From positions 146,692,001 through 146,756,000 of the forward strand of contig OZ024743.1 of NCBI GenBank assembly GCA_964016885.1: DNA of 64,000 bases. Reading direction: 5' to 3'. This stretch comes from Eledone cirrhosa (lineage: Eukaryota). Both the position numbers and the translations under genes were made by a program. Below the pieces are notes generated by a model. It did no database searches. It saw only the letters and a program-made list of their open reading frames with translations, and was not told where the DNA came from. How positions within the stretch are numbered: the first letter of the stretch is position 1; every line of letters starts with the position of its first letter. This document shows positions 10,281-61,196 of the stretch, piece after piece.

Positions 10281-10300
10281 TGATAATAATAATAAAAATA

Positions 10301-11336
10301 ATTTCTTTATTGGACTTACATATAGGGGACAGTACAAAAAGACAGGGACATTAGGAGGTTACAATAAAATTGAGTAAAAAAAAATTAACAAAAACAATTA
10401 ACAATAAAATTATGACAATAAATATACCCGATAGGGAAGAGAACCATCCAGATGCAACTTAGGTACCCCACAAATCTTGAACCACCTGATACTTCAAGGG
10501 CACTTAGGAAGGGCACCCCTCTTATCATCAAATTAATCAGCCTGCAGGTACATGTGCAGAGTAGGCCCATTCACACAGGCCATTCATCACATTCATCCCC
10601 CTTTTAGCAAATGTACTGAGGGGCAACACTTCTCTCTCCACACTTACCTTTCTTTCCAAGTGAATCTTGAAAAAGTTGATGAGGGAATAACAGAAGAGAA
10701 AAGTGTCTGTCTTCAGTTCTTTCAACCCAGTCCACCACACAACCTCTTTCGCTACCATCACCGGACAGAGGAAAACTGCCTGCCCTTCCCAGCCAAAAGA
10801 TGGCCGGTCAATGTTCACTATGTGACAACAGTTGTTTGACATAAATCCACAAGTTAGTAATGCATGGATACTGGTGAGTGTATGCAGAATGCTTTTGTCA
10901 CTCTCTGTGCACCTCTCAGGCAGGTCCGTCTGACAGCACTTCCATGTCGGTAGAGTTTATCTTGAACTGGCTGTGTTCCTGGCAGCATTGCCAAGTGAGG
11001 GATTTCTGGAAGTTATCCATAGTCCCCAGCTTGAGAGTCTTCTGGAACAGACTGGTCAGTTCAACTTTGTCAACACCAGAGCCTCCCTGTGCATGTCATC
11101 ACACTTGCCCACCACTAATCCTCTATAGGACTTGAGAGCGGAGTTTCCACTGACCACATTGCCCACCTTGTAGAGGGCAGTGAGGGTCTGGCAACATTCC
11201 AAGTGCCCAGTCGCAGTCTCTTCTTGACCCAGGACTGCAGCTCAACCATGTCTGTTCACTGTTTAGTCAGAATATTTGGAGATATTGCAGACTCAGTGCA
11301 TGTTTGTGCATCATTAGCTATGGCATGCCTAGCCCA
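10301..11336 (-). pseudogene. Decayed 3' fragment of a Tx1-clade LINE
   Basis: ORF 10537-10842 (EGQAVFLCPVMVAKEVVWWTGLK..FFKIHLERKV) matches the ORF2 C-terminus. GLGMP*LMM lies near 11320. The 3' end ccaataaagaaat is followed by ATT repeats. Confidence 0.85.
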
Positions 11337-11569
11337 GTCAAAGAGAAAGAACAAATTAAGTGTACCATACATAGTATCATCACTCTTTCTGTTGAAATTT
11401 ACAAAATTTGATAGCAACCATAGCTACTTTAAAGTAAGAGACAACATTTATAAACTGTTGATGCTGACCTTGACTTAGTTAAAACAAGCAGCAGAAATCA
11501 ACAAAAACACCATTAACAACGAAAACAACAAATAATTTAAAAAATAACCAACACTAACAGCTTCAATGA

Positions 11570-11790
11570 CATCCACATCAGCACCAGTACCAGCAGCAGC
11601 AGCAGCAGCAGCACCACTACCACCAGCACCACCACCAGCAGCACTAGCACCACCCCTGCCACCAGCACACTACCACCACCAGCACCACCAGCACCACCAG
11701 CACCACCAGCACCACCAGCACCACCCCTGCCACCAGCACCACCAGCATACCACCAGCACCAGCAGCAGCAGCACCACCACCACCATCAGT
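11570..11790. repeat. (CAC/CAG)n compound trinucleotide repeat
   Basis: caccagcaccaccag units seen directly. Confidence 0.9.
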
Positions 11791-11819
11791 TATTCACATC
11801 CAATGCCATATCCTTTTTC

Positions 11820-14480: not shown

Positions 14481-14825
14481 AATAATAATAATAATAATAA
14501 TAATTATGATAGTAATAATAACAACAACAAAGAAGAAATAAAGAGTGGAAAAGAAGACCTTTATTCATATGTGTATGCCATCAGAATTAATTCTAGACTA
14601 AACAATAGGGACAACAAATAATAAGAGCCAGGTAGTTTTTAGTTTCTGGTTGTACAATTAAGCATCATTAACTTTACTTGGTTCTCTGCAACAATTTACT
14701 CAGCAGCATTCAATTCCTCTTACAAACTTAAGAGTGGCTTTGATGAAAATAAATAAAATTTAGCAGAAAAAGCTAATAAATGATTCATATTTATGAACTG
14801 AAAACTATGATTTTTCAGGGAAAAT

Positions 14826-31590: not shown

Positions 31591-31621
<31 letters not shown>

Positions 31622-31678
31622 GAATGCCATGGTTGACGGAGGCTCGGCTCTGTAAGGTATAGTAATGTTTAACCGTTA

Positions 31679-31809
31679 AAACAATTGTAAATTGTTTAAA
31701 ACTTGAACCAAATTGTTGATAAAGACACCCTCCTCCTCGTGAGAGGGGTCTTTCTGTCCGTTATTTGGCCCTTCGGGGTTAAATAACCAGTTATTAGGGT
31801 TTTGTACCC
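31679..31809 (+). promoter_or_regulatory. Structured 5' UTR: four consecutive hairpins, including a C(UUCG)G tetraloop stem
   Basis: aaacaatt/aattgttt; aaagac..gtcttt (31721-31753); gttatttggccc-ttcg-gggttaaataac (31760-31787); gggt/accc. All are retained in copy 2. Confidence 0.55.
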
Positions 31810-31836
31810 CAAATTTCATTTTAAACAAAAAACAAC

Positions 31837-33933
31837 ATGGCTACGAAAAAGAAATTTCATAGGTCACTCCCACTCATTCCGTCTTCTTCTTCCTCAATCA
31901 TCACTACAGCAGAGAGAAGATTGTCTCTCTCCCTCCCTTCTTTAAATGTGTCTCTCTCCCTCCCTTCTCTTTCGCAAGTGACGAAAGAAAAGAAAAGTCT
32001 CGTGCAAAGCGTGCAAGGTTTCTCCACGACGACGACGACAGCGACGAAACAGGTGTGCGGGAAATACGAAAACCCAGTTCATTCGTCTGACGTCAGGAAT
32101 AATAGCAGTAGCAGCCGTAATAACAACAGCAACAGTGACAATGAAAACAACAGTAGCAGCCGCAACAGCATCACCAGCAGCATAAACAACAACAGCATTA
32201 GCAGCAGCAACACCAACAACAACCACAGCAACAGCGGCGGAGGCAGTAGTCGTAGTACCTGCAGCAACAACAAAAGTACCAGCAGCTCTGACGACAACAA
32301 CAAAAGCAGAGAAAAACCAATCTCATTTGCAGGTATTGCGAAAAACTTGGAAACAATCCTCATAACAAATGAGGAATTAGAGGAAGCGAAGAAGATGGTG
32401 ACAAAGAACGGACACCGAGCAATCTGCAAGGCAGCGGAAAAATTTTTCGAAACCCAAGAGCACTGTACGGTCGCGTACCGTACAGTAAGTACAAAATCCC
32501 GTAGGGTGGAAAGAGCCACAGAGGCCCAAATACAAAAAGCCTTGGGGTCTGTGTGGCAGCGGAAAACGCACATCACCCGAGGCAAAAAATATGCCACCGT
32601 AGACGTACTTTTTGCCACACCCCAGGAGGCAAAGGCCCAATCAGTAGTGACCCTAAGGAGCGAGGAAATGGTGTTGGTGCCCTCCTACTGCGGGCAAAAA
32701 ATTGTGAGGGTCAAACTGACCCACGTCCCCCCCGGAATGACCCCTTCTTGGCTGGCCGCGTCTGTCCTCGTCGGAATCGAGGACAAAACAACTGTACTGC
32801 AAGTACAGAAAAAAGTAAGAGAAGATTGGGTCGGCTCCTCCATTGAGATGCTAATCCAAACCAACCAGGAGTGCATCGAAGCTATCCCGGATGTGATAGA
32901 CTTCGATAACGGCACTCAACTGCCCATAAGTGTTGAGGGCAAACGCCCGAAATGCTTTCGCTGTGGATCAAAGACTCACCTCAGGGCCTTCTGCAACGAG
33001 AAGACCCTGAGAAAGGAGAAAACCCCCCTCCTTCCGAATCCGGCTCCACGGCTACCAGCAACAGGACAAGCGGCAACCAGGAACGATAGGTCCGTGGCAC
33101 CCATACCCACTCCACGGAAATCAAAAACAGCAGCAGCAGTGGAAATATTAACAACAACAACAGCAATACCAAATGCAGCTGCAACAGATACTCCAGTGCA
33201 AACATCACCAACAACAATAAGTGAAAGAGTGGAGCTGGTACCCCTCCCCGACCTCACAGAATCAGACATGGAGTGTGAGGTGGGAGAGGGATGGCAAAAG
33301 GTCGCAAGAAGGCACAAACGCAGAAGCAGCGCATCGTCGCCTTTGAAAAGGGAGGAAAGAAATGAGAAAAGGGTAAAGTCTACTGCAAAGAGACCCACAG
33401 CAGCAACACCACCAACACCATCACCACCCACACCAGCACCACCATCACCACCGGCGACAACCCCACCGCCAACAACACCTTCAACACCACCACCACAAGC
33501 ACCAACATCGCAAACACAACAACAAAACACACACACCCAGCAACAACGACAAGAAAATAGCAGAACCACACCCCACCCTCAGAAAAACAAATGCACGGCA
33601 ATAAACACACACAACAAGAAACTAATGACTTACATAATTGAACACACAGACATTTCACAACAGGACTACATAATACCAGCACCAATCAAAACGCCAACTA
33701 ACATAAGACTGCTAAAAATAGCACAGAAACAATACACAAACATTAAAACGAAATTCCCCAACGCAGTTGGTGATTTCAGGGACCTAGGAGGAACCATCAA
33801 TCGAAGAGTATATTCAGACATTCTCTTAGAAGAGCCGACGACCAGCCGAAGGGACGATTCAACGGTCCCTTCACCAGACGATCAAGTGAAAAGGGATGTA
33901 AAAACCATCCCCCCTCTACCAAAAGTACGGTAA
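31837..33933 (+). CDS. Tx1 ORF1 nucleic-acid-binding (Gag-like) protein, 698 aa
   Basis: CFRCGSKTHLRAFC (C-x2-C-x4-H-x4-C knuckle), basic WQKVARRHKRR motif, and N/S-rich and P/T-rich linkers. Confidence 0.92.
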   Translation: MATKKKFHRSLPLIPSSSSSIITTAERRLSLSLPSLNVSLSLPSLSQVTKEKKSLVQSVQGFSTTTTTATKQVCGKYENPVHSSDVRNNSSSSRNNNSNSDNENNSSSRNSITSSINNNSISSSNTNNNHSNSGGGSSRSTCSNNKSTSSSDDNNKSREKPISFAGIAKNLETILITNEELEEAKKMVTKNGHRAICKAAEKFFETQEHCTVAYRTVSTKSRRVERATEAQIQKALGSVWQRKTHITRGKKYATVDVLFATPQEAKAQSVVTLRSEEMVLVPSYCGQKIVRVKLTHVPPGMTPSWLAASVLVGIEDKTTVLQVQKKVREDWVGSSIEMLIQTNQECIEAIPDVIDFDNGTQLPISVEGKRPKCFRCGSKTHLRAFCNEKTLRKEKTPLLPNPAPRLPATGQAATRNDRSVAPIPTPRKSKTAAAVEILTTTTAIPNAAATDTPVQTSPTTISERVELVPLPDLTESDMECEVGEGWQKVARRHKRRSSASSPLKREERNEKRVKSTAKRPTAATPPTPSPPTPAPPSPPATTPPPTTPSTPPPQAPTSQTQQQNTHTQQQRQENSRTTPHPQKNKCTAINTHNKKLMTYIIEHTDISQQDYIIPAPIKTPTNIRLLKIAQKQYTNIKTKFPNAVGDFRDLGGTINRRVYSDILLEEPTTSRRDDSTVPSPDDQVKRDVKTIPPLPKVR

Positions 33934-33968
33934 GTGGTCTTTCCCATATTTTCCACTCTATTTTAAAC

Positions 33969-36900
33969 ATGACCTCACTCAGAATAGGCAGCATAAATGC
34001 GCGTGGCTTGGGGTCGTCATGGAAGCAGGGTCACCTGCTCAACGACCTCAGGTCACTAAACATAGATGTAGTGGCCATCAGCGAGACCAGAATCTCCGAA
34101 GCACGGGCCTCGGCACCGATCTTCGGCGGCTACGATGTGTACGCATCTCCCAGCTGTCCTGGATCGGGTGGAGGAGTTGCTGTGCTTTTTCGGAGAGGTT
34201 TGGATCTCGCCATACGGGCCATCTTCCTGGACCCAGAGGGTAAGCTGGTGGTGCTGGACGTGACCAGCGGAGACGGGCAAGCTTTCAGGCTAGTGGCCGT
34301 CTATGCCCCGACAGGAGCAGGGCGGCCTGATTTCTTCCGGCGTCTGGAGACCTTTCTTGGAACGTCCCGCTCTTTAGTGTTAGTGGGCGACTGGAACGGG
34401 ATCTTAGATGCACGCTGGGACTGTGTGGGATTAGCGGATAGGGGTGGAGGGTGCAAGAGCCTCACCAACCTGCTCAGGCGTTTTGAACTGTCTGACAGGT
34501 ACCGATTGGATTTCCCGAATGTACCAATGTGGACTTGGACAAACCGCATAGGGTCATCCAGATCATATCTAGATAGAGTATTTTGTAGGGAAATAGATAG
34601 GTCTAGCATAGGCTGTCCACAATTCAAGATAGTCAGCTACACGGACCACAAATTCGTGATCTGTGTGCTTGACTTAGATAGGCTTCATAGACGAGGACCC
34701 GGCTACTGGAAGCTAAACGCGTCCTTACCAGCGCGCAAGGCCTACAGAGACCGGATTAGCGAACTAGTTAAGCGGGCGTTGACGGGGGCCATCGTCAACA
34801 ACAAGTGGTGGTTTGCTCTGAAAAGAGCGATTAGAATAGAATCGATTAGGTTTAGTAAGGCTTTAGCAATAGAGAAAAATAGAGCAGAGGGAGAACTAGT
34901 TAGAAAATTAGACGAGGCGCTTAGCAAAGGCATTGCGACCGACGTGCTTGCGGCGAAATTGGCCCTTGACCAATTCTTCAATGCAAAGCACGAAGGCTGC
35001 GTTGTCAGAGCTAGGGTGCGTGCTCTCAGACACGAGGGGACGAAAGCCGTTCAATGGGCCCGAGTGGCGGAGGCGCGTCGTGGCAACAAAGCGACGATCC
35101 GGTCTTTGGTGGACCACGACGGGCGCATGCTACTCGATCCCGGGCAAATGTGTGAAGCTTTTCAGCGACACTTCGCTCAGCTGTTCGGGGGCAGCGGGGG
35201 GCCGGGTAGAGGGATGGACTTTAGTGTCTACCTCGACGGACTGCCGCGGCTCTCGGCCACTGAGGCGAAGTGTTGCGAAAAGCCGATAACAGCCGCTGAA
35301 GTAAGGGAGGCAATGACTGGCTGCACAAGGGGTAAATCGCCTGGTTTGGATGGTCTGCCCTATGAACTTTACGTACAGATGCCAGACTTGTTCGGAGGCC
35401 TCTTGGCGGACGTCTACTGCAACTGGCAACAGAACGGGAGAATTCCCAGTTCTGTGAGCCGAGGAGCGGTGGCACTGCTGAGAAAAGATCCTAACAAGGG
35501 GGATAACATAGAAAATTTCCGGCCCATAACTCTGCTAAACACAGAGTTTAAGATTTTGGCCAAGGTGCTAGCAAAGAGGTTGGCGCTTGTCGTTGGTGGT
35601 CTGGTGGGAGAGGCGCAGACATGCGCCATTCCCGACAGATCCATCCACGACAACCTCCACCTCATGCGATACATCGTAGAGAGGGTAGCTAGGGAACCTG
35701 GCACGGGTGGGTCCTTGATCAATTTAGATCAGTCGAAAGCTTTCGATAGGGTCGACCATCGTTACCTAGCGGCAGTCCTGAGGGCGGCTGGCTTTGGGCC
35801 CGTCTTCAGAGGCTGGATCTCTGCCATGCACAGCGACATCTGCTCTGTGGTGAGAGTGAACGGTCACCTGTCGGAACCGTTCAACATCATGCGCTCGGTC
35901 CGCCAAGGATGTCCCCTCTCGTCCCTCTTGTACGTATTGACGCTCGAGCCATTACTGCACAAACTGGAGACGTTGAGGGGAGTCCCGCGCGAACTAGGAT
36001 GCGGAAGATCCGTGTCAGCATATGCGGACGATGTCACCGTAGTGGTGTCGAACGCCAAACACATCGAGGCGATCGGCACTACACTAAGAGAATACGAAGC
36101 GGTGACAGGAGCAATGATCAACCAGGAAAAGTCAGTGGGCCTGCAGCTCGGCACCTGGAGAGGCAGGTCCATGCCGTCCAACAGCGTCGTCGGGCGCTGG
36201 ACGGACGGACCGGTTAAATTGCTAGGGGTCTGGTTCGGTCCGGACCTCCAGACGGACAAAAACTGGGACGAGGTGACGAGCAGGGTGGCTTCTCTCACCC
36301 AGAAATGGGCGGAGAGGAAGCTATCCCTGAAAGGTCGAGCGGAGGTGGCTAACGCGTACATCGCGTCTGTCATCTGCTACCGCCTAACCGTCGTACCTTG
36401 TCCTAAGCCTCGCCTGACTGCGCTGGAGCGTTTGCTCTTTCGCTTTTTGTGGAAGGGACGTGCTCCGATGGTCAGGCGGTCCATCTGTTGTCAACACCCG
36501 CTACGTGGAGGGCTGGGCATGCCGTGGCTGATGATGCGCAGGCACGCGCTCAGGCTACGACATCTCCACCTCTTCCTCGACGGTGATCAGGTGTGGTCGC
36601 CGTTTGCTAGACGCGTTTTTCCCCAGCTCGTTTCCTTGACGGAGCTGCAGTCCTGGGTCAAGCGAAGACCGAGAGGGAGCGCCTGGAGACTGGAATGTCT
36701 TCAGGCGCTCACAGCCCTCGACCAATCGGGCAATGTGATCGGTGGAAACTCCACCTCGGCGTTCTATAGAGGATTAGTGGAGGGGAAGAGCGACGACGTA
36801 CTTGGGGAAACTCTAGGCGTCGACGAAAATCAACTAGCCAATCTCTTCGGAAGAACCTTCGGGCCAGGGCCTATGGACAACTTCCAGAAATCTCTGGCCT

Positions 36901-37388
36901 GGCAGTGCTACCGAGGAGCCTTGCCAGTTCGGGATAAACTCTACAGGCATGGAGGTGCCGTCAGCCGGGCATGTCCGAGATGCGCGCAGGGCGACGAAAC
37001 CGTCCTGCACGCACTCGTCCAGTGTCCGAAAATTGCTGACTTGTGGGTTTATGTCGAACACCTGCTGTCGCGTTTAGGACGGATCCAGCTATCATCTGAG
37101 TCTATCGTGAGGATTGCCCCGCCCTCCTCCTTTAGCCGGGAAGGGCAGGCAGTTTTTATCTGTCTGGTGGCCATGGCGAAAGAGATAGTATGGTGGACAC
37201 GTTTGAAAGGGCTGAAGACGAGCACTTACCTCTTCGGTGATGCTCTGATTGACTTTTTCAAATTTCATTTGAAAAGGAAAATCAGAGTAGAGAAGGAAGT
37301 GCTCTCTTCCCAGCATTTTGTTGAAAGATGGGTGAGAGAAGCAAGAATGGCCCGAGTGAATGGGCCGACTCTGAGTATATATCTGTAA
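33969..37388 (+). CDS. Tx1 ORF2: APE endonuclease, reverse transcriptase and CCHC zinc finger, 1139 aa
   Basis: SINARGL, ISETR, VYAP, GDWN, SYLDRV and TDH (APE). KSPGLDG, RPITLLNTEFKIL, DQSKAFDRV, RQGCPLS and YADD (RT). CPRC..ETVLH..C. Confidence 0.97.
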   Translation: MTSLRIGSINARGLGSSWKQGHLLNDLRSLNIDVVAISETRISEARASAPIFGGYDVYASPSCPGSGGGVAVLFRRGLDLAIRAIFLDPEGKLVVLDVTSGDGQAFRLVAVYAPTGAGRPDFFRRLETFLGTSRSLVLVGDWNGILDARWDCVGLADRGGGCKSLTNLLRRFELSDRYRLDFPNVPMWTWTNRIGSSRSYLDRVFCREIDRSSIGCPQFKIVSYTDHKFVICVLDLDRLHRRGPGYWKLNASLPARKAYRDRISELVKRALTGAIVNNKWWFALKRAIRIESIRFSKALAIEKNRAEGELVRKLDEALSKGIATDVLAAKLALDQFFNAKHEGCVVRARVRALRHEGTKAVQWARVAEARRGNKATIRSLVDHDGRMLLDPGQMCEAFQRHFAQLFGGSGGPGRGMDFSVYLDGLPRLSATEAKCCEKPITAAEVREAMTGCTRGKSPGLDGLPYELYVQMPDLFGGLLADVYCNWQQNGRIPSSVSRGAVALLRKDPNKGDNIENFRPITLLNTEFKILAKVLAKRLALVVGGLVGEAQTCAIPDRSIHDNLHLMRYIVERVAREPGTGGSLINLDQSKAFDRVDHRYLAAVLRAAGFGPVFRGWISAMHSDICSVVRVNGHLSEPFNIMRSVRQGCPLSSLLYVLTLEPLLHKLETLRGVPRELGCGRSVSAYADDVTVVVSNAKHIEAIGTTLREYEAVTGAMINQEKSVGLQLGTWRGRSMPSNSVVGRWTDGPVKLLGVWFGPDLQTDKNWDEVTSRVASLTQKWAERKLSLKGRAEVANAYIASVICYRLTVVPCPKPRLTALERLLFRFLWKGRAPMVRRSICCQHPLRGGLGMPWLMMRRHALRLRHLHLFLDGDQVWSPFARRVFPQLVSLTELQSWVKRRPRGSAWRLECLQALTALDQSGNVIGGNSTSAFYRGLVEGKSDDVLGETLGVDENQLANLFGRTFGPGPMDNFQKSLAWQCYRGALPVRDKLYRHGGAVSRACPRCAQGDETVLHALVQCPKIADLWVYVEHLLSRLGRIQLSSESIVRIAPPSSFSREGQAVFICLVAMAKEIVWWTRLKGLKTSTYLFGDALIDFFKFHLKRKIRVEKEVLSSQHFVERWVREARMARVNGPTLSIYL

Positions 37389-37649
37389 ACTAAAGGTGGA
37401 AAACTGGGAGAGGGCACTTGCCTTGGTGGTCAGGGTCATTGTGGCTTTTTACTGGGCTTTCTCCACAAATGTCCCTCCGAAGTCTCCCCCCTATTGGGGA
37501 ATTTTTCATTGTTATTTTCATTGTTATTTTTGTTACATCCTCTATTTTTGTTTTTTTTACACGCAGAAATGCCCATTTGTACCGTCCTGCATTGTCCTGC
37601 ACTGTCCTTAATGTCTACTTTATGTAAACCCTTGTGGTTAATAAAGAAA

Positions 37650-37684
<35 letters not shown>

Positions 37685-37897
37685 GAATGCCATGGTTGAC
37701 GGAGGCTCGGCTCTGTAAGGTATAGTAATTTTTAACCGTTAAAACAATTGTAAATTGTTTAAAACTTGAACCAAATTGTTGATAAAGACACCCTCCTCCT
37801 CGTGAGAGGGGTCTTTCTGTCCGTTATTTGGCCCTTCGGGGTTAAATAACCAGTTATTGGGGTTTTGTACCCAAAATTTCATTTTAAACAAAAAAAC

Positions 37898-39994
37898 ATG
37901 GCTACCAAAAAGAAATTTCATACGTCACTCCCACTCATTCCGTCTTCTTCTTCCTCAATCATCACTACAGCAGAGAGAAGATTGTCTCTCTCCCTCCCTT
38001 CTTTAAATGTGTCTCTCTCCCTCCCTTCTCTTTCGCAAGTGACGAAAGAAAAGAAAAGTCTCGTGCAAAGCGTGCAAGGTTTCTCCACGACGACGACGAC
38101 AGCGACGAAACAGGTGTGCGGGAAATACGAAAACCCAGTTCATTCGTCTGACGTCAGGAATAATAGCAGTAGCAGCCGTAATAACAACAGCAACAGTGAC
38201 AATGAAAACAACAGTAGCAGCCGCAACAGCATCACCAGCAGCATAAACAACAACAGCATTAGCAGCAGCAACACCAACAACAACCACAGCAACAGCGGCG
38301 GAGGCAGTAGTCGTAGTACCTGCAGCAACAACAAAAGTACCAGCAGCTCTGACGACAACAACAACAGCAGAGAAAAACCAATCTCATTTGCAGGTATTGC
38401 GAAAAATTTGGAAACAATCCTCATAACAAATGAGGAATTAGAGGAAGCGAAGAAGATGGTGACAAAGAACGGACACCGAGCAATCTGCAAGGCAGCGAAA
38501 AATTTTTTCGAAACCCAAGAGCACTGTACGGTCACGTACCGTACAGTAAGTACAAAATCCCGTAGGGTGGAAAGAGCCACAGAGGCCCAAATACAAAAAG
38601 CCTTGGGGTCTGTGTGGCAGCGGAAAACGCACATCACCCGAGGCAAAAAATATGCCACCGTAGACGTACTTTTTGCCACACCCCAGGAGGCAAAGGCCCA
38701 ATCAGTAGTGACCCTAAGGAGCGAGGAAATGGTGTTGGTGCCCTCCTACTGTGGGCAAAAAATTGTGAGGGTCAAACTGACCCACGTCCCCCCCGGAATG
38801 ACCCCTTCTTGGCTGGCCGCGTCTGTCCTCGTCGGAATCGAGGACAAAACAACTGTACTGCAAGTACAGAAAAAAGTAAGAGAAGATTGGGTCGGCTCCT
38901 CCATTGAGATGCTAATCCAAACCAACCAGGAGTGCATCGAAGCTATCCCGGATGTGATAGACTTCGATAACGGCACTCAACTGCCCATAAGTGTTGAGGG
39001 CAAACGCCCGAAATGCTTTCGCTGTGGATCGAAGACTCACCTCAGGGCCTTCTGCAACGAGAAGACCCTGAGAAAGGAGAAAACCCCCCTCCTTCCGAAT
39101 CCGGCTCCACGGCTACCAGCAACAGGACAAGCGGCAACCAGGAACGATAGGCCCGTGGCACCCATACCCACTCCACGGAAATCAAAAACAGCAGCAGCAG
39201 TGGAAATACTAACAACAACAACAGCAATACCAAATGCAGCTGCAACAGAGACTCCAGTGCAAACATCACCAACAACAACAAGTGAAAGAGTGGAGTTGGT
39301 ACCCCTCCCCGACCTCACAGAATCAGACATGGAGTGTGAGGTGGGAGAGAGATGGCAAAAGGTCGTAAGAAGGCACAAACGCAGAAGCAGCGCATCGTCG
39401 CCTTTGAAAAGTGAGGAAAGAAATGAGAAAAGGGTAAAGTCTACTGCAAAGAGACCCACAGCAGCAACAACACCAACACCATCACCACCCACACTAGCGC
39501 CACCATCACCACCGGCGACAACCCCACCGCCAACAACACCTTCAACACCACCACCACAAGCACCAACATCGCAAACACAACAACAAAACACACACACCCA
39601 GCAACAACGACAAGAAAATAGCAGAACCACACCCCACCCCCAGAAAAACAAATGCACGGCAATAAACACACACAACAAGAAACTAATGACTTACATAATT
39701 GAACACACAGACATTTCACAACAGGACTACATAATACCAGCACCAATCAAAACGCCAACTAACATAAGACTGCTAAAAATAGCACAGAAACAATACACAA
39801 ATATTAAAACGAAATTCCCCAACGCAGTTGGTGATTTCAGGGACCTAGGAGGAACCATCAATCGAAGAGTATACTCAGACATTCTCTTAGAAGAGCCGAC
39901 GACCAGCCGAAGGGACGATTCAACGGTCCCTTCACCAGACGATCAAGTGAAAAGGGATGTAAAAACCATCCCTCCTCTACCAAAAGTACGGTAA
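37898..39994 (+). CDS. Tx1 ORF1, copy 2 (ATG at 37898, 698 aa)
   Basis: Collinear with copy 1 ORF1, about 13 aa substitutions, no stops. Confidence 0.92.
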   Translation: MATKKKFHTSLPLIPSSSSSIITTAERRLSLSLPSLNVSLSLPSLSQVTKEKKSLVQSVQGFSTTTTTATKQVCGKYENPVHSSDVRNNSSSSRNNNSNSDNENNSSSRNSITSSINNNSISSSNTNNNHSNSGGGSSRSTCSNNKSTSSSDDNNNSREKPISFAGIAKNLETILITNEELEEAKKMVTKNGHRAICKAAKNFFETQEHCTVTYRTVSTKSRRVERATEAQIQKALGSVWQRKTHITRGKKYATVDVLFATPQEAKAQSVVTLRSEEMVLVPSYCGQKIVRVKLTHVPPGMTPSWLAASVLVGIEDKTTVLQVQKKVREDWVGSSIEMLIQTNQECIEAIPDVIDFDNGTQLPISVEGKRPKCFRCGSKTHLRAFCNEKTLRKEKTPLLPNPAPRLPATGQAATRNDRPVAPIPTPRKSKTAAAVEILTTTTAIPNAAATETPVQTSPTTTSERVELVPLPDLTESDMECEVGERWQKVVRRHKRRSSASSPLKSEERNEKRVKSTAKRPTAATTPTPSPPTLAPPSPPATTPPPTTPSTPPPQAPTSQTQQQNTHTQQQRQENSRTTPHPQKNKCTAINTHNKKLMTYIIEHTDISQQDYIIPAPIKTPTNIRLLKIAQKQYTNIKTKFPNAVGDFRDLGGTINRRVYSDILLEEPTTSRRDDSTVPSPDDQVKRDVKTIPPLPKVR

Positions 39995-40029
39995 GTGGTC
40001 TTTCCCATCTTTTCCACTCTATTTTAAAC

Positions 40030-43000
40030 ATGACCTCACTCAGAATAGGCAGCATAAATGCGCGTGGCTTGGGGTCGTCATGGAAGCAGGGTCACCTGCT
40101 CAACGACCTCAGGTCACTAAACATAGATGTAGTGGCCATCAGCGAGACCAGAATCTCCGAAGCACGGGCCTTCGCACCGATCTTCGGCGGCTTCGATGTG
40201 TACGCATCTCCCAGCCGTCCTGGATCCGGTGGAGGAGTTGCTGTGCTTTTTCGGAGAGGTTTGGATCTCGCCATACGGGCCATCTTCCTGGACCCAGAGG
40301 GTAAGCTGGTGGTGCTGGACGTGACCAGCGGAGACGGGCAAGCTTTCAGGCTAGTGGCCGTCTATGCCCCGACAGGAGCAGGGCGGCCTGATTTCTTCCG
40401 GCGTCTGGAGACCTTTCTTGGAACGTCCCGCTCTTTAGTGTTAGTGGGCGACTGGAACGGGATCTTAGATGCACGCTGGGACTGTGTGGGATTAGCGGAT
40501 AGGGGTGGAGGGTGCAAGAGCCTCACCAACCTGCTCAGGCGTTTTGAACTGTCTGACAGGTACCGATTGGATTTCCCGAATGTGCCAATGTGGACTTGGA
40601 CAAACCGCATAGGGTCATCCAGATCATATCTAGATAGAGTATTTTGTAGGGAAATAGATAGGTCTAGCATAGGCTGTCCACAATTCAAGATAGTCAGCTA
40701 CACGGACCACAAATTCGTGATCTGTGTGCTTGACTTAGATAGGCTTCATAGACGAGGACCCGGCTACTGGAAGCTAAACGCGTCCTTACCAGCGCGCAAG
40801 GCCTACAGAGACCGGATTAGCGAACTAGTTAAGCGGGCGTTGACGGGGGCCATCGTCAACAACAAGTGGTGGTTTGCTCTGAAAGGAGCGATTAGAATAG
40901 AATCGATTAGGTTTAGTAAGGCTTTAGCAATAGAGAAAAATAGAGCAGAGGGAGAACTAGTTAGAAAATTAGACGAGGCGCTTAGCAAAGGCATTGCGAC
41001 CGACGTGCTTGCGGCGAAATTGGCCCTTGACCAATTCTTCAATGCAAAGCACGAAGGCTGCGTTGTCAGAGCTAGGGTGCGTGCTCTCAGACACGAGGGG
41101 ACGAAAGCCGTTCAATGGGCCCGAGTGGCGGAGGCGCGTCGTGGCAACAAAGCCACGATCCGGTCTTTGGTGGACCACGACGGGCGCATGCTACTCGATC
41201 CCGGGCAAATGTGTGAAGCTTTTCAGCGACACTTCGCTCAGCTGTTCGGGGGCAGCGGGGGGCCGGGTAGAGGGATGGACTTTAGTGTCTACCTCGACGG
41301 ACTGCCGCGGCTCTCGGCCACTGAGGCGAAGTGTTGCGAAAAGCCGATAACAGCCGCTGAAGTACGGGAGGCAATGACTGGCTGCACAAGGGGTAAATCG
41401 CCTGGTTTGGATGGTCTGCCCTATGAACTTTACGTACAGATGCCAGACTTGTTCGGAGGCCTCTTGGCGGACGTCTACTGCAACTGGCAACAGAACGGGA
41501 GAATTCCCAGTTCTGTGAGCCGAGGAGCGGTGGCACTGCTGAGAAAGGATCCGAACAAGGGGGATAACATAGACAATTTCCGGCCCATAACTCTGCTAAA
41601 CACAGAGTTTAAGATTTTGGCCAAGGTGCTAGCAAAGAGGTTGGCGCTTGTCGTTGGTGGTCTGGTGGGAGAGGCGCAGACATGCGCCATTCCCGACAGA
41701 TCCATCCACGACAACCTCCACCTCATGCGATACATCGTAGAGAGGGTAGCTAGGGAACCTGGCACGGGTGGGTCCTTGATCAATTTAGATCAGTCGAAAG
41801 CTTTCGATAGGGTCGACCATCGTTACCTAGCGGCAGTCCTGAGGGCGGCTGGCTTTGGGCCCGTCTTCAGAGGCTGGGTCGCTGCCATGCACAGCGACAT
41901 CTGCTCTGTGGTGAGAGTGAACGGTCACCTGTCGGAACCGTTCAACATCATGCGCTCGGTCCGCCAAGGATGTCCCCTCTCGTCCCTCTTGTACGTATTG
42001 ACTCTCGAGCCATTACTGCACAAACTGGAGACGTTGAGGGGAGTCCCGCGCGAACTAGGATGCGGAAGATCCGTGTCAGCATATGCGGACGATGTCACCG
42101 TAGTGGTGTCGAACGCCAAACACATCGAGGCGATCGGCACTACACTAAGAGAATACGAAGCGGTGACAGGAGCAATGATCAACCAGGAAAAGTCAGTGGG
42201 CCTGCAGCTCGGCACCTGGAGAGGCAGGTCCATGCCGTCCAACAGCGTCGTCGGGCGCTGGACGGACGGACCGGTTAAATTGCTAGGGGTCTGGTTCGGT
42301 CCGGACCTCCAGACGGACAAAAACTGGGACGAGGTGACGAGCAGGGTGGCTTCTCTCACCCAGAAATGGGCGGAGAGGAAGCTATCCCTGAAAGGTCGAG
42401 CGGAGGTGGCTAACGCGTACATCGCGTCTGTCATCTGCTACCGCCTAACCGTCGTACCTTGTCCTAAGCCTCGCCTGACTGCGCTGGAGCGTTTGCTCTT
42501 TCGCTTTTTGTGGAAGGGACGTGCTCCGATGGTCAGGCGGTCCATCTGTTGTCAACACCCGCTACGTGGAGGGCTGGGCATGCCGTGGCTGATGATGCGC
42601 AGGCACGCGCTCAGGCTACGACATCTCCACCTCTTCCTCGACGGTGATCAGGTGTGGTCGCCGTTTGCTAGACGCGTTTTTCCCCAGCTCGTTTCCTTGA
42701 CGGAGCTGCAGTCCTGGGTCAAGCGAAGACCGAGAGGGAGCGCCTGGAGACTGGAATGTCTTCAGGCGCTCACAGCCCTCGACCAATCGGGCAATGTGAT
42801 CGGTGGAAACTCCACCTCGGCGTTCTATAGAGGATTAGTGGAGGGGAAGAGCGACGACGTACTTGGGGAAACTCTAGGCGTCGACGAAAATCAACTAGCC
42901 AATCTCTTCGGAAGAACTTTCGGGCCGGGGCCTATGGACAACTTCCAGAAATCTCTGGCCTGGCAGTGCTACCGAGGAGCCTTGCCAGTTCGGGATAAAC

Positions 43001-43449
43001 TCTACAGGCATGGAGGTGCCGTCAGCCGGGCATGTCCGAGATGCGCGCAGGGCGACGAAACCGTCCTGCACGCACTCGTCCAGTGTCCGAAAATTGCTGA
43101 CTTGTGGGTTTATGTCGAACACCTGCTGTCGCGTTTAGGACGGATCCAGCTATCATCTGAGTCTATCGTGAGGATTTCCCCGCCCTCCTCCTTTAGCCGG
43201 GAAGGGCAGGCAGTTTTTAACTGTCTGGTGGCCATGGCGAAAGAGATAGTATGGTGGACACGTTTGAAAGGGCTGAAGACGAGCACTTACCTCTTCGGTG
43301 ATGCTCTGATTGACTTTTTCAAATTTCATTTGAAAAGGAAAATCAGAGTAGAGAAGGAAGTGCTCTCTTCCCAGCATTTTGTTGAAAGATGGGTGAGAGA
43401 AGCAAGAATGGCCCGAGTGAATGGGCCGACTCTGAGTATATATCTGTAA
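40030..43449 (+). CDS. Tx1 ORF2, copy 2, 1139 aa
   Basis: Collinear with copy 1 ORF2, about 9 aa substitutions, catalytic motifs intact. Confidence 0.97.
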   Translation: MTSLRIGSINARGLGSSWKQGHLLNDLRSLNIDVVAISETRISEARAFAPIFGGFDVYASPSRPGSGGGVAVLFRRGLDLAIRAIFLDPEGKLVVLDVTSGDGQAFRLVAVYAPTGAGRPDFFRRLETFLGTSRSLVLVGDWNGILDARWDCVGLADRGGGCKSLTNLLRRFELSDRYRLDFPNVPMWTWTNRIGSSRSYLDRVFCREIDRSSIGCPQFKIVSYTDHKFVICVLDLDRLHRRGPGYWKLNASLPARKAYRDRISELVKRALTGAIVNNKWWFALKGAIRIESIRFSKALAIEKNRAEGELVRKLDEALSKGIATDVLAAKLALDQFFNAKHEGCVVRARVRALRHEGTKAVQWARVAEARRGNKATIRSLVDHDGRMLLDPGQMCEAFQRHFAQLFGGSGGPGRGMDFSVYLDGLPRLSATEAKCCEKPITAAEVREAMTGCTRGKSPGLDGLPYELYVQMPDLFGGLLADVYCNWQQNGRIPSSVSRGAVALLRKDPNKGDNIDNFRPITLLNTEFKILAKVLAKRLALVVGGLVGEAQTCAIPDRSIHDNLHLMRYIVERVAREPGTGGSLINLDQSKAFDRVDHRYLAAVLRAAGFGPVFRGWVAAMHSDICSVVRVNGHLSEPFNIMRSVRQGCPLSSLLYVLTLEPLLHKLETLRGVPRELGCGRSVSAYADDVTVVVSNAKHIEAIGTTLREYEAVTGAMINQEKSVGLQLGTWRGRSMPSNSVVGRWTDGPVKLLGVWFGPDLQTDKNWDEVTSRVASLTQKWAERKLSLKGRAEVANAYIASVICYRLTVVPCPKPRLTALERLLFRFLWKGRAPMVRRSICCQHPLRGGLGMPWLMMRRHALRLRHLHLFLDGDQVWSPFARRVFPQLVSLTELQSWVKRRPRGSAWRLECLQALTALDQSGNVIGGNSTSAFYRGLVEGKSDDVLGETLGVDENQLANLFGRTFGPGPMDNFQKSLAWQCYRGALPVRDKLYRHGGAVSRACPRCAQGDETVLHALVQCPKIADLWVYVEHLLSRLGRIQLSSESIVRISPPSSFSREGQAVFNCLVAMAKEIVWWTRLKGLKTSTYLFGDALIDFFKFHLKRKIRVEKEVLSSQHFVERWVREARMARVNGPTLSIYL

Positions 43450-43711
43450 ACTAAAGGTGGAAAACTGGGAGAGGGCACTTGCCTTGGTGGTCAGGGTCAT
43501 TGTGGCTTTTTACTGGGCTTTCTCCACAAATGTCCCTCCGAAGTCTCCCCCCTATTGGGGAATTTTTCATTGTTATTTTCATTGTTATTTTTGTTACATC
43601 CTCTGTTTTTGTTTTTTTTTACACGCAGAAATGCCCATTTGTACCGTCCTGCATTGTCCTGCACTGTCCTTAATGTCTACTTTATGTAAACCCTTGTGGT
43701 TAATAAAGAAA

Positions 43712-43746
<35 letters not shown>

Positions 43747-44469
43747 GTTCTTTGAGTCTCAGTCATTGATGTTAGTTAACTGGAAAGTTTGAAATGAATA
43801 TCAAGCCACTACCTGCAGCCTCAGATATTCAGGACGTATCGGAGGGTTCTTGCTGTTCCCAGCAAGCATGCCTTTTGAAGTGTTCCAAAAAGCGGGGCGG
43901 GGCCAATTTTCTTTAACCATCCCTGGAAACTTTTTGAGATAGTACCTAGTGCACCTATGACAATCGGGATCACTTTGATTTCATGGTAGTGCCAAATCCT
44001 TTTTACCTCCCACTTTAAGTCCTGGTATCGGTTAATTTTCTCCCTCTCCTTCTCTTGCACTCTCATGTCGAATGGGCAGGCCACATCCACAATCAGACAC
44101 GATCTTTTTTCCTTGTCCAAAACCACCAGGTCAGGTCTATTTTGTTCCAGTTTCTTGTCCGTCTGTATCCTAAAATCCCATAGTATCTTCACCTGATCGT
44201 TTTCTATCATCGACTCTGGCTTATGCTCATACCACTTCTCAGAATGTGGTAAATTGTTTACTTTGCATAGGTGCCAATGGATCACCCTGCCCATCACATC
44301 ATGTCTCCAGCCCTTATAGTGAGTCTGGGCTAGGTGTTTACACTCGGATACAATGTGAGCCACAGTCTCCTCTCTCTCTCCACAGATCCTGCACAGTGGG
44401 CTAGCCTCCTCCTTGTAAATATGGTGTTTCAGCCACTTCGTTTTGAGGGCCTGCTCTTGTGCAGCCATT
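43747..44469 (-). mobile_element. 5'-truncated R4/Dong-clade element (CCHC, restriction-like endonuclease, 74-nt 3' UTR) flanked by (AAT)n
   Basis: Uninterrupted frame 44468-43821: AAQEQAL, CRICGEREETVAHIVSEC, RHD, WDFRIQTD, NRPDLVV..VDVACPFD, EKINRYQDL, PIVIGALG. AAT repeats on both sides. Confidence 0.92.
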
Positions 44470-44510
44470 TTATTATTATTATTATTATTATTAATATTAT
44501 TATTATTATT

Positions 44511-45905
44511 GGTTGATGGACTGCGAAGACGTGTTTTTGTGAGCTCCATGAGTTGGTTAATATTCAAGTTTTTGCATTGAATTAATTGTATTTTTTGTGA
44601 GAAAAGGATCATAAGAGATGAATGAGACACACACTCTCCTGTTAAGTCAACTACCAAGTGTCAGCGACTTAAACGTTGAGCGGAGCAAACAGGATTATAT
44701 GTGCAGCCACAGTGGTAACGAGTCAAACACTATACAATTTTGACTTAACAGAAAAAAATGAACGTTTGGCCCAGGCAGAAAAAATTATAACTAGAGAAAA
44801 AACCTGGGCCAACTTAATCATCCCGGAAGTGGTGATAGCAGTAAAGGAGAGGAGAACACTGAAATATAGATGCATTTCAGTGAAATCATGAAAAGCCAAG
44901 ACAGCCTTTGAAGGACAAGTAAAGGCTGCACTGAAATGCATCAACAATAATGACATAGAGCATATAGCAAGGGCCAAACAATTTGGAAACATCTTGGTGC
45001 TCTTCAAACCTGAGGCTCTTGCTATCAAGCATTCTGTGGTCCCCTGTCAAACAGACCAAATAGTCATGTACCCATTTTACATAGGGAGGAGAAGGGTAAG
45101 GGTCCGTGTTCTCAGGATTCTGCCAGGACTGGAGTTATGAGGGCTCCTGGGATGCATGGCGGCAGAGGGCCCTGACACCCTCCTCAATGTCAAATTTACA
45201 AAGAGGGAGAGGTGGTTTGGGATCAGTTTGGGGATTCTTCTCCAAATCAGACGTGAAGACATCAAAAATATCCTGGACCACATCAAACTACTGGATGGAT
45301 ATGAGATCCAAATAGTCACAGAAAGCAAACAGCCACACTCTTTCGTTTATGGTGAAGCCACAGATGTACATGCCTTTTGTTCCTAGCTGAAAACTTCAGG
45401 GGGATACAAACCTCCATTGCTGCCAAGAGAGGTGCCCTCTGATACAGAATCCCTTGACACCAGTTCCTCCTCATCTCCAAATGAAGATGAGGAGGAACCC
45501 CAAAAAACCAAAAATGTCAAAAACGAAAACACAAAATGAAAACAAAATTCATCTTCACACACACCAACAATCTCACAAGCACACCCACAGCAAACACAGA
45601 CACACCTACAACAACACCACAACCATTAACAAAAACACAACCAACACAGACACAACTGCAAACCATGCCTCACAAAAGAAAATATGCAGACACCAACAAT
45701 GACAGAAATACCCAACTTTGTGTTACGAAGAAGGGCCAACAAAAAACTGATGGCCCTTGTAACACAAAATCAAGACACTAAGAAAGAGGTGGAGATTTTT
45801 GGCACTTGCACCTTCAAAGTGCCCCAAACACTGCTGATGGTGCGGATACCAATCAGCACCTACAAAAACATTAAAGAGAGCTTTCTCGATGATATGAGGA
45901 CCCCT
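44511..45905 (+). pseudogene. Decayed Tx1-family element (5' UTR and ORF1) starting directly after (ATT)n
   Basis: 5' end ggttgatgga resembles ggttgacgga of the intact copies. HIARAKQFGNILVLF, PFYIGRRRVRVRV, RERWFGISLGILLQ and KKLMALV..YKNIKESF align to ORF1. Confidence 0.78.
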
Positions 45906-45909
45906 AATT

Positions 45910-47182
45910 GGAAGCCTCGAGTAGGCTTTTAAAGAAGTTCCCAACAGAAACCTCACCAACCATTGCTGAATTGTAAAGGGCAGTGAGCACCTGGCAACAT
46001 TCCAGATACCAGGTGCCCAGACTTGGTCTTCGTTTGACCAATGATTGCAGCTCAATCAAAGAGACGAGTTGCGGAAAGACTTATCTCACAAATGGTGACC
46101 ACACCTGTTCACCATTTAGGGATATCTGGAAATGTTGTAACCTCAGTGCATGTTTGCACATCATCAGTTATGGCATGCCCAGCCATCTGCATAGAAAGTG
46201 CTGGCAGCAGATGGACAACCTAACCAAGGGATCCTGCCCCTTCTACAAGAAGTTGAAAAGCAGGTGCTCCAATTTGGTGAGGCATGCACATGAATGGGAG
46301 CAAGGCATGACGGTCAGATGGTAATAAATGATGGATGTGATGCACGCATTTGCCACTCCTGTCCGACCTTAGCTTCCTCTTTGCACATTATTGGGTTCCG
46401 AAACAGTTCCGAAAGATGGCCATTAACTTTGACCACCAAGCAGATGTCGCTCTACATTGCAACAATCCAGCCCCTGAAGATGAGACCAAAGCCAGCTGCC
46501 TTGAGGACAGTCTTCAGGTATCAATGGTTGACCCTATCAAAAACTTTCGACTGATCCAAATTAATCAGAAACCCAACAAAGTCAGGTTTACACTATATCC
46601 TCTCTATGATGTATCTAGATAAATTTACTCGCACAAAGTATGGCATCTGTGCGGTCAGTTGTTGTGGTAGTGTGTGTTTGTGTTTGCTTGGTTTTGTTGC
46701 TGGTGGTAGCGGTGGTAATGTTGGCAGTGTTTGAGTTGCTGTGGATGTATCTGTATTTGTTATGTGTGTATTCACTGCATTTTCTGTTCTGTGTGTGTGA
46801 TGCCAGATGTTTCTGTCTTGTGTTCTTTTGTAGCTCCCCCTCATCTTCACTTCGAGATAAAGAAGTGCCAGTGTCTGTGGAATCTGTTTCTGATGTTAGT
46901 GGGTGTTTGTTTGTTAGTGTTGGTGGGGGTGGTACTACTATTGACTTTTGAATCACAGTCATGTGACATCTGGCTCAAGAGGGACGTATCCCCTCTATTT
47001 TTTAAAAGCTTGTAGGCATGAAACTAAAAAACAAAATTCTAATATTATGAGGTCTCGCTTCTTGAGGGCAAAATACCTATGTACCCTTGAAACTAAAATA
47101 ATTTAACATATAATGGTTTAAACAACTTAAAACAGCACACTTACTGGAGCTCACAATTATACATTGTCATATGTCAGTTACC
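45910..47182 (-). pseudogene. Decayed, internally deleted Tx1-family element (5' end, ORF1 piece, ORF2 pieces)
   Basis: Minus strand reads LINLDQSKVFDRVNH, AAGFG..FRGWI, LEHLLF, ICCQH, GMP*LMM and VFPQLVSL. The 5' end ggtaactgac abuts ATT repeats at 47183. Confidence 0.8.
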
Positions 47183-48362
47183 AATAATAATAATAATTGT
47201 TTCTACTTTAGGTACAAGGCCAGCAATTTAAAGGGTGGGGAAAGTCGATTAAAATGACCCCAGTGGATTTTACCGACCCCATAAGGATGAAAGGCAAAGT
47301 TAACCTCGGCAGGATTTGAACTCAGAAGATAAAGGGCCGTAACTCTATGCTGCAAAGTATATTGTCTGACGCTCTACCAATACTGTTAATCCACCGCCTT
47401 AATAATTGTTTCTACTTTTGGCACAAGGCCAGCAATTACACAGTACATTACTGGTACTTTATTTTATCAACCCCGTGAGGATGAAAGGCAAAGTTAACCT
47501 CAGCGAGATTTGAACTCAGATCATAAAGGGGCGTAACTCTATGCTACAAAGCATGGCGTCTGACTCTCTACCGATACTGCCAATCATAATAATAATAATT
47601 GTTTCTACTTTAGGCACAAGGCCAGCAATTACCCAGTACATTACTGGTACTTTATTTTATCGACCCCATGAGGATGAAAGACAAAGTTAACCTCAGCGAG
47701 ATTTGAACTCAGATCATAAAGGGGCGTAACTCTATGCTACAAAGCATGGCGTCTGACTCTCTACCGATACTGCCAATCATAATAATAATAATTGTTTCTA
47801 CTTTAGGTACAAGGCCAGCAATTCACCAGTGCATTACTGGTACTTTATTTTATCGACCCCGTAAGGATGAAAGGCAAAGTTAACCTCGGCGAGATTTGAA
47901 CTCAGACCGTAAAGGGACGTAACTTTGCTGGAAAGCATGGCATCCGACTCTCTACCAATACTGCCAATTCACCGCCCCTAATAATAATTGTTTCTACGTT
48001 TGGCACAAGGCCAGCAATTAGCCAGTGCATTACTGGTACTTTATTTTATCGACCCCGTAAGGATGAAAGGCAAAGTTAACCTCGGCGAGATTTGAACTCA
48101 GACCGTAAAGGGACGTAACTTTGCTGGAAAGCATGGCATCTGACTCTCTACCAATACTGCCAATTCACCGCCCCTAATAATAATTGTTTCTACGTTTGGC
48201 ACAAGGCCAGCAATTAGCCAGTGCATTACTGGTACTTTATTTTATCGACCCCGTAAGGATGAAAGGCAAAGTTAACCTTGGCGGGATTTGAACTCAGAAT
48301 GGCAAGGGCCGTAACTCTATGCGTCAAAGCATGGCGTCCGACCCTCTACCGATACTGCCAAT
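47183..48362 (-). mobile_element. Head-to-tail array of six ATT-tailed tRNA-SINE copies
   Basis: Six units of about 185-205 bp, each beginning (plus strand) aataattgtttctac(t/g)tt..gg(c/t)acaaggccagcaatt and separated by AAT repeats. Confidence 0.93.
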
Positions 48363-48399
48363 GGTCATTACTATGACTATTACTATTCTTGTTTGCTGT

Positions 48400-48465
48400 T
48401 TTCCTCTGTATTTTGCCTTTGTATTGTTCCCAACATTTTTAGTCCTTGTGGCCAATAAAATAAAT
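48400..48465 (+). mobile_element. Possible short Tx1-type 3' UTR stub
   Basis: cctttgtattgttccc...gtccttgtggccaataaa resembles the 3' ends of the Tx1 copies. Confidence 0.45.
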
Positions 48466-49198
48466 AATTTTTACTACAATTATTTTCATCATTGTTTTTA
48501 TTTTCATCACCATTATTATTATCTTTATATTTATATAGTTTTTTTTTATCAACTTCAATATTGTATTTTTTCATTACAATTTTTTTAAAGAAAGAAAAGC
48601 TTTGGCAAGTAACGTGCATTTGCCACCCAACATCACTGCATGTGACTTGAACAATGAATGCAAGCAACTCTTGCAACATATGTTAGATTTTATTGCAATC
48701 TAGATTATGTATGTGTACAGTGATTGATCACATGGAACATTCTTGGTGTGAGGGGCAATTTGCAGGAGTAGAAAGAGTTATGACATGTTTGCATACCTGA
48801 TATGGATTGTTGAACACCTGCTGAGAAGAAACATTTTTGTTTACTTGTTCATTTAGGTTGAATATATCATCATCCTCATTATATCTGCCTCATCCCTCTT
48901 ATCATCATCATCATCGTTATCATCTTCCTCCTCCTTACCACCACCACAACCATCACCACCACTTCCACTACCATTATCATCAACATCATCGTCATCATTG
49001 TCATCATTGTTGACACCATCATCATTGCCATGTCACCGATTGCCATGTTAACGATGATGATAATTACAAGGTCATATATTCCTTGCAAAGTATTAATGCT
49101 ACATATCATTTCGGTTCATTTTGCTCCTTATGAAAATGGGGGAAGTTGTAGCTGCATGCTTATCTCTAATATATACATATACAAATACATACATGTAA

Positions 49199-56074: not shown

Positions 56075-56157
56075 AAGAATGACAAAATAAGATAGATTGA
56101 GGGGACGGGCGGGCTGGAATTGGAAAAAATGTCTTCAGATAAAAATAACATATATAT

Positions 56158-59615: not shown

Positions 59616-59803
59616 TGTTTCTATTTTAGGCACAAGGCCAGCAATTACCCAGTACATTACTGGTACTTTATTTTACCGACCCCGTAAGGATGAAAGGCAA
59701 AGTTAACCTCGGCGGGATTTGAACTCAGATCATAAAGGGACGTAACTCTATGCTTCAAAGCATGGTGTCCGACTCTCTACCGATACTGCCAATCCACCGC
59801 CCT
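59616..59803 (-). mobile_element. Full-length ATT-tailed tRNA-SINE
   Basis: 19-bp TSD ttaattgctataaattaat at 59597-59615 and 59808-59826. Confidence 0.92.

Positions 59804-61134: not shown

Positions 61135-61196
<62 letters not shown>

Follow-up and report, generated by a model that had tools for sequence, protein, structure and literature searches.

The ATT/AAT tract in this Eledone cirrhosa sequence is, on the weight of the evidence, probably a reusable landing site for two retrotransposons, Tx1 and Dong, which insert in opposite orientations, each by target-primed reverse transcription, using the strand with which the 3' end of its RNA can pair. The window (the whole stretch of DNA analysed, 64,000 nucleotides) is AT-rich and abundant in simple repeats. 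Within it, the locus that carries this reading extends over 12,918 bp from tract 1 to tract 4 (31593-44510), in the following order:

31593..31621 (+): (ATT)n tract 1, the 5' flank of Tx1 copy 1
31622..37651 (+): Tx1-type LINE copy 1, 6030 bp; ORF1 31837-33933, ORF2 (APE-RT-zinc finger) 33969-37388
37652..37684 (+): (ATT)11 tract 2, 33 bp, between the 3' end of copy 1 and the 5' end of copy 2
37685..43713 (+): Tx1-type LINE copy 2, 6029 bp; ORF1 37898-39994, ORF2 40030-43449
43714..43746 (.): (ATT)11/(AAT)11 tract 3, 33 bp, common to Tx1 copy 2 and the Dong-type fragment, which lie tail-to-tail
43747..44469 (-): Dong/R4-type fragment, 5'-truncated, 723 bp
44470..44510 (.): tract 4, 41 bp with one interruption; read as sense (AAT)n it adjoins the Dong 5' junction, and read as sense (ATT)n it adjoins the 5' end of Tx1 relic E

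Tract 1 is the sole one of the four with non-element DNA to its left. Tracts 2 (37652-37684) and 3 (43714-43746), both 3' of Tx1 ends, are identical in length. An earlier note on this DNA had described an R4/Dong-type element tail-to-tail with Tx1 copy 2 on one 33-bp tract, AAT repeats at the truncated 5' end of that element, and one original microsatellite that would have gained about 12.9 kb. The coordinates were confirmed, sense (AAT)n was found at the truncated end (tract 4), and the span from tract 1 to tract 4 was measured as the 12,918 bp given above. It is possible that the four tracts are pieces of one original microsatellite, as the note had proposed; element tails and target duplications would give the same picture.

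Polarity of element ends in the window

The other Tx1-type and Dong-type pieces in the window, together with a SINE array lying among them, are:

1961..4398 (-): Tx1-type relic A, 5'-truncated, 74% at the nucleotide level to copies 1 and 2; 3' stem-loop motif present
10279..11340 (-): Tx1-type relic B, whose sense ATT tail (10279-10302) continues into a SINE of the same polarity
11790..14504 (+): Dong/R4-type relic, interrupted by a SINE and ending in sense (AAT)8 at 14481-14504
44511..45906 (+): Tx1-type relic E, older, with the 5' region and a broken ORF1
45907..47182 (-): Tx1-type relic F, internally deleted
47183..48362 (-): ATT-tailed SINE, six tandem copies
48362..48466 (+): isolated Tx1-type 3' end G, with the stem-loop motif, AATAAA and a degenerate AT-rich tail

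The Tx1-type pieces counted were copies 1 and 2 and relics A, B, E, F and G. Across the 64-kb window, 7 of their 10 resolved ends touch sense (ATT)n and none touches (AAT)n. Four of the five resolved 5' junctions are at sense ATT (copy 1, copy 2, E and F) and that of A is not; the junction of B is unresolved and G has none. At the 3' side, sense ATT adjoins the ends of copy 1, copy 2 and B, the tail of G is degenerate, A has no tract, and the ends of E and F are lost. Dong ends are found at sense (AAT)n in 3 of 4 cases, namely both 3' ends and one of the two 5' junctions. The earlier note had also reported that the Dong-like relic ends in sense (AAT)n, and this was seen at 14481-14504; no AAT tract was found at the 5' junction of that relic, which was delimited by tblastn pieces (approximately 11790 to 14170).

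Strand-positions that lie inside a sense ATT tract of at least 12 bp, or immediately follow one, make up 0.12% of the window (151/128,000). Against this background, 4/5 Tx1 5' junctions give a nominal P of 1e-11, and the same excess counted as 2/3 independent loci gives a P of 4e-6; both values are partly circular, since the insertions themselves lengthen tracts. Three of the four ATT-tract 5' junctions are at one locus, and two of the tracts are the tail of another element. Counted by element, ATT-sense polarity is seen in all five Tx1 pieces that bear a tract (two-sided P 0.06); the sample is one window, with five such Tx1 pieces and two Dong pieces. Every perfect tract of at least 12 bp (13/13, or 12 after merging) abuts a Tx1, Dong or SINE end, as classified by eye. 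Kojima's criterion for a microsatellite-specific Tx1 is the presence of the target in >20% of flanks, and the figure to set against it is the 7/10 resolved ends, which come from one window with several diverged families pooled. Relic A, a Tx1 without an ATT tract at either end, is a counterexample.

In each of the four Tx1 5' ends preceded by an ATT tract (31622, 37685, 44511 and 47182) the first base is G, which may represent a copied cap. In relic F the 5' end comes after the (ATT)5 tail of a SINE. Relics E and F have a 12-nt motif in common near their 5' ends, and the 5' ends of copy 1, E and F align only weakly outside short motifs. A putative inversion of about 45907-48362 would put E, F, the six SINEs and G all in ATT-sense order. 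Beside relic B (-), the stretch 11340-11790 (+) is low-complexity CAC/CAG sequence that resembles Tx1 ORF1 by simple-sequence similarity only; it is possibly a 5' inversion of relic B.

The suggestion that an empty site would join 31594 to 44511 as flanks did not survive on its right side. Position 44511 was rejected as unique flank, as relic E begins there, identified by an ORF1 match at 44775-45383 (31%, E 2e-18). An empty site would instead join 31592 to the 5' end of relic E. The resulting order of unique flank, tract and E is compatible with one original tract.

The Tx1 copies and the Dong-type fragment

ORF1 and ORF2 are intact in each of the two Tx1 copies. ORF2, of 1139 codons, matches the Pfam families Exo_endo_phos (5.6e-14), RVT_1 (2.2e-28) and zf-RVT (8e-8), and the APE catalytic motifs were found in it. 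In the Tx1 clade ORF1 is gag-like and bears a CCHC knuckle; here one C-x2-C-x4-H-x4-C knuckle is present in ORF1, at aa 389 of the copy 2 protein (P0003). The Xenopus Tx1 ORF2 (YTX2_XENLA) was matched by the window ORF2 with 331 bits over residues 66-1204 at 29% identity, and solved L1 ORF2p chains with 180 bits. By these bit scores, the only comparable measure between the two databases from which the matches come, the window Tx1 appears closer to Xenopus Tx1 than to mammalian L1. Among named proteins its closest relative comes from Argonauta hians (69% over 59% of the query), which points to a probable octopod host. In RT trees (quick and FastTree) the window Tx1 groups with Argonauta and other relatives with support of 98-100, in trees whose deep forks are poorly settled and whose rows do not include mammalian L1. 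A stem-loop is predicted at the 3' terminus of copy 1 (37627..37639, +), with a 4-bp stem and a 5-nt loop that overlaps AATAAA, and the same predicted structure is found in copy 2 at 43689-43701.

R4/Dong elements have a C-terminus in which a CCHC knuckle is followed by the RHD, PD..D and KxxxY motifs of a restriction-like nuclease. The Dong-type fragment carries CCHC, RHD, PD..D and KxxxY at aa 90, 119, 176 and 208 of its predicted protein (P0001). It consists of 215 intact codons (43824-44468), a stop codon and a 74-nt 3' UTR. The R4/Dong element had been credited with an open frame, and this holds for the Dong-type part of it. The frame has 279 codons and is homologous to Dong in residues 65-279 only, which correspond to residues 944-1158 of a full-length relative at 72% identity. 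The remainder is AAT tract and antisense DNA. With 215/279 codons from Dong and the RT absent, the frame was rejected as a gene.

A single ORF, an upstream RT and the lack of N-terminal zinc fingers were read from relatives of the fragment, which is itself without that region. Among the 30 relatives of at least 1100 aa, the N-terminal C2H2 pattern is present in none and an RGYRxRM-type motif in 21. One relative (P0005) has a weak HSDR_N_2 (restriction-fold) match, and the nearest solved structures to the full-length relatives are R2 proteins. Both the lack of N-terminal zinc fingers and the proximity of R2 structures would be expected of R4/Dong elements. The 105 matches to the fragment include no named Dong or R4 protein, and its assignment to R4/Dong therefore depends on motifs and target rather than on a tree.

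The ATT-tailed SINE

A SINE of about 195 bp, with a head that is tRNA-like by eye, is present in 13 copies that have the 3' motif, and ATT follows all 13. Its loci and the insertions with target duplications, together with the single RTE-type relic used for comparison, are:

5720-6027, 10073-10279, 12489-12547, 47183-48362, 59616-59802, 61214-61456: ATT-tailed SINE loci
5842..6027 (+): full-length SINE, 19-bp target duplication overlapping the ATT tail
12489..12547 (+): 5'-truncated SINE inside the coding sequence of the Dong relic, 14-bp target duplication starting ATT
59616..59802 (-): full-length SINE, 19-bp target duplication starting ATT
56150-57510: RTE-type relic with an ATG tail

In an Rfam search of the window the SINE was unmatched and one tRNA gene only was returned. 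A tRNA-Ser-like gene is found at 51251-51322 (-) by both ARAGORN and Rfam, with a low score.

Seven SINE copies were checked for duplications. Three have them (14, 19 and 19 bp, in unique DNA), two lie in repeats, and no target duplication was found for the other two. The three insertions with ATT-led duplications sit at short ATT sites, outside long microsatellites. The last 22 nt of the SINE match the Tx1 ends at 15-17 positions, and a match of at least 15/22 to the SINE end occurs at 8 of 122,650 positions, three of which are Tx1 ends. The 17/22 matches at 19891 and 20345 were rejected as Tx1 or SINE ends, as they have no upstream support, and were counted as background. From these similarities the SINE is likely a non-autonomous partner of the window Tx1 lineage. 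RTE was rejected as the partner, as the window RTE is tailed by ATG and has matching repeats of its own; this relic serves as an internal control for the SINE-Tx1 pairing. Short repeats with the same 3' end and tail as the RTE relic are found at 1700-1760, 24800-24872 and 28372-28430. At 10018-10072 and 61136-61353, long ACT/TAG tracts directly continue SINE ATT tails, which suggests that SINE tails seed or target other trinucleotide repeats.

A sister Tx1 lineage and a predicted 3' stem-loop

A contig scan for Tx1 relatives returned 42 loci, of which 36 (L001-L035 and L040) are on contigs of one record, CAXXMW01. No orthologue of the window locus was found among the 42 loci, and no Dong C-terminal match among the 36. 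The CAXXMW01 loci represent a sister Tx1 lineage, 40-44% to the window element, with which it groups in trees (support 98-99). The sister elements form head-to-tail arrays with a period of 6.4-6.8 kb, and each sister subfamily has its own particular junction sequence. Two truncated sister copies are preceded by the same 16-17 nt as full-length copies, a pattern expected if the target is regenerated. Three ATT/AAT units in the following 45 nt were found at 0/48 distinct sister junctions on 16 contigs. ATT as the ancestral target of the lineage was rejected on this count, and because no sister junction carries ATT, targeting of ATT is probably particular to the octopod branch of Tx1.

The record CAXXMW01 is titled as a bacterial MAG; at least 16 of its contigs consist of tandem Tx1-type LINE arrays, and these are evidently eukaryotic host DNA. 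Another bacterial MAG record contains a distant, Keno-like Tx1-type element (L041:4051-5640), whose 3' end abuts a U2 snRNA, with U1 and 5S genes adjoining.

Between the SINE end and the sister Tx1 3' end there is a 13-nt exact match, a length reached by control windows in 0/1336 and 0/2032 cases. Across 15 3' ends, the inner three pairs of the stem around the five-base loop are paired in 44/45 cells, with changes on both sides. Stem covariation is 0.293 compared with 0.103 in shuffled alignments, and 0/500 shuffles reach it; the test used 15 hand-registered related rows, with relic B left out (no motif), and the best slid control (+3) scored 0.229. These values are suggestive of a covarying 3' stem-loop common to the SINE and the Tx1 lineage.

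The nuclease hairpin loop is nearly the same in 7/8 to 8/9 sampled sister loci (L001 being apart), despite their differing junctions. The loop was accordingly rejected as the cause of the junction differences, and near-identical loops with different junctions favour RNA pairing over read-out by the nuclease. The hairpin loop of the window Tx1 is unlike those of both the sister lineage and Xenopus Tx1.

Mechanism and alternative explanations

The likely mechanism is priming by the RNA tail at a loosely specified nick, rather than a proven convergence of nucleases. The Tx1 transcript would run past AAUAAA into a few AUU units, and ORF2p would bind the 3' stem-loop. The (AAT)n strand would be nicked by the Tx1 APE with loose specificity, the likely site being a T/purine step, and the freed target end could then pair with AUU and prime the cDNA. 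The target duplication and the tail would rebuild the tract on both sides, allowing further Tx1 copies to stack head-to-tail; LINE target duplications are hidden inside the repeats. Dong would nick the (ATT)n strand first and insert with sense (AAT)n, by analogy with (TAA)n-specific Dong elements. Tx1 likely also spreads the SINE of the window. SART1 and R1Bm provide a precedent for annealing between RNA and target (PMC7265360). In the Tx1 and R1 elements described in two papers, the main target determinant is reported to be the nuclease (PMC4494074, PMC7265360), which counts against tail priming.

The earlier note had proposed that an APE-type and an RLE-type enzyme converged on one repeat and nick opposite strands. 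The two nuclease types, their opposite polarity and the common repeat are borne out by motifs and junctions. Opposite first-strand nicks are inferred from the opposite polarity combined with target-primed reverse transcription, and convergence is favoured by the lack of ATT at the sister junctions (0/48). Tail priming accounts for the polarity as well as a putative recognition of the repeat by the Tx1 nuclease would. That the Tx1 APE has acquired a specificity of its own for the (AAT)n strand, comparable to that of Kibi and Koshi for TC/TTC, with two nucleases converging to nick opposite strands, is rather unlikely. Such specificity would agree with the 4/5 Tx1 5' junctions at tracts of at least 5 units, with the microsatellite-specific Tx1 families already described, with the target changes that follow nuclease swaps in SART/TRAS, and with the difference between the window hairpin loop and the sister-lineage and Xenopus loops. 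However, the SINE with a Tx1 3' end inserts where there are only one to three ATT units, and sister subfamilies with nearly the same loop differ in their junctions.

Tail priming has also to be weighed against passive accumulation, in which Tx1 has no target, the tracts are tails or read-through 5' repeats, and Dong, with its preference for TAA, landed in a Tx1 tail. That all tracts of at least 12 bp adjoin element ends, that relic A is without tracts, that window families each have their own repeat tail (such as ATG in the RTE relic) and that tracts 2 and 3 are equal in length would all fit. Passive accumulation is nonetheless improbable: the four 5' junctions at ATT tracts belong to at least two diverged families, non-element DNA lies to the left of tract 1, and the upstream copies of the SINE duplications, which represent target DNA, start ATT or TTA. 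Least credible is an origin of the Tx1 tandem by local duplication, or by assembly duplication of two alleles, instead of by two insertions, even though the copies are 99.2% identical (51 differing alignment columns) and each is followed by an identical 33-bp tract. Their 43 coding substitutions (20 synonymous and 23 replacement) correspond to a dN/dS of 0.36, with P 0.001 from site counts and P 0.01 in a transition-aware neutral simulation. Such synonymous-enriched divergence argues for two insertions rather than a duplication; in addition, flanking DNA was not duplicated along with the element, and the sister lineage is commonly found in tandem arrays. Copies 1 and 2 are therefore likely separate insertions from two source elements under selection.

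Comparison with known elements

Sense TAA is reported upstream of silkworm Dong (PMC3774820), TAA is the Dong target in most insects, molluscs and cnidarians (PMC7998251), and Dong on TAA is included in a list of microsatellite-targeting LINEs (PMC3812793). The window fragment resembles the Dong elements of Bombyx mori (Dong), DongAg and DongBg in having a restriction-like nuclease after the CCHC knuckle and sense (TAA/AAT)n at its two junctions. It differs in being a 5'-truncated piece of 723 bp that lacks the RT and is inserted against a Tx1 tail. L1-Tx1 and Dong-R4 have been recently active in Octopus vulgaris (for Dong-R4, Table 1), in a report whose excerpts do not mention targets (PMC13282606). 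Cephalopod repeats are covered in PMC8967140, PMC10294476 and PMC9115989, and SINE partners in PMC3747384 and PMC4758252.

Kibi, Koshi and the crocodilian Tx1 elements are likewise two-ORF APE elements in simple repeats (TC, TTC, TTCC, TTTC; PMC4494074), and Tx1-1_ACar is a Tx1-type element in telomeric repeats (PMC10088271). The window Tx1 differs from these in its likely ATT target, its apparent placement on a separate invertebrate branch, the lack of a poly(A) tail and the conserved 3' stem-loop. Parallel evolution onto one target, the U2 snRNA, has been described for Keno (Tx1, APE) and Utopia (RLE) (PMC4640811). Those two have the same 3' flank and orientation at a gene target, while the window pair occupies a microsatellite with opposite polarity. 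TRAS and SART are two LINE families oppositely oriented on (TTAGG)n, and annealing of RNA to target has been implicated for SART1 (PMC7265360). Both are telomeric R1-clade APE elements, in contrast to the unrelated nucleases and interstitial repeat of the window pair. The crocodilian SINEU/Tx1-Mar system combines a SINE that has the Tx1 target preference with tandem stacking around duplications (PMC4494074). SINEU carries snRNA heads and poly(A), and a LINE with the SINEU-1 3' end is reported not to have been detected (PMC4494074), whereas the window SINE has a tRNA-like head (by eye) and a 3' stem-loop in common with the Tx1 lineage.

Dong on (TAA)n was thus already known. The ATT-placed Tx1, the sharing of a tract with opposite polarity and the SINE link appear to be undescribed, each as seen in one window. 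In the literature searched, which does not include Repbase or subscription journals, no ATT-specific Tx1 was found (the supplement and Figure 3 targets of PMC4494074 may include one), nor any Tx1 partner for an octopus SINE, nor any APE/RLE pair on one microsatellite.

Implications

These results would add ATT to the known targets of Tx1. The occupation of one microsatellite by an APE and an RLE element of opposite polarity joins two precedents that had so far been found separately. A candidate partner LINE can also be named for a SINE with 13 tailed copies in the window; in Octopus vulgaris about 11.6% of the genome consists of SINEs, most of them unclassified (PMC13282606).

With two intact Tx1 copies it becomes testable whether the target of a site-specific LINE is set by the nuclease or by RNA-target pairing. 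If the RNA sets the target, a Tx1 lineage would be retargetable by altering its tail. A broader, speculative and so far somewhat doubtful picture is a three-element ecosystem: the octopod Tx1 would read a conserved 3' stem-loop, pick its site by pairing of a read-through tail and switch targets with the nuclease unchanged; together with the SINE it would make ATT microsatellites, of which Dong would colonise the other strand. The findings suggest how octopod ATT microsatellites may arise and why markers of this kind can fail.
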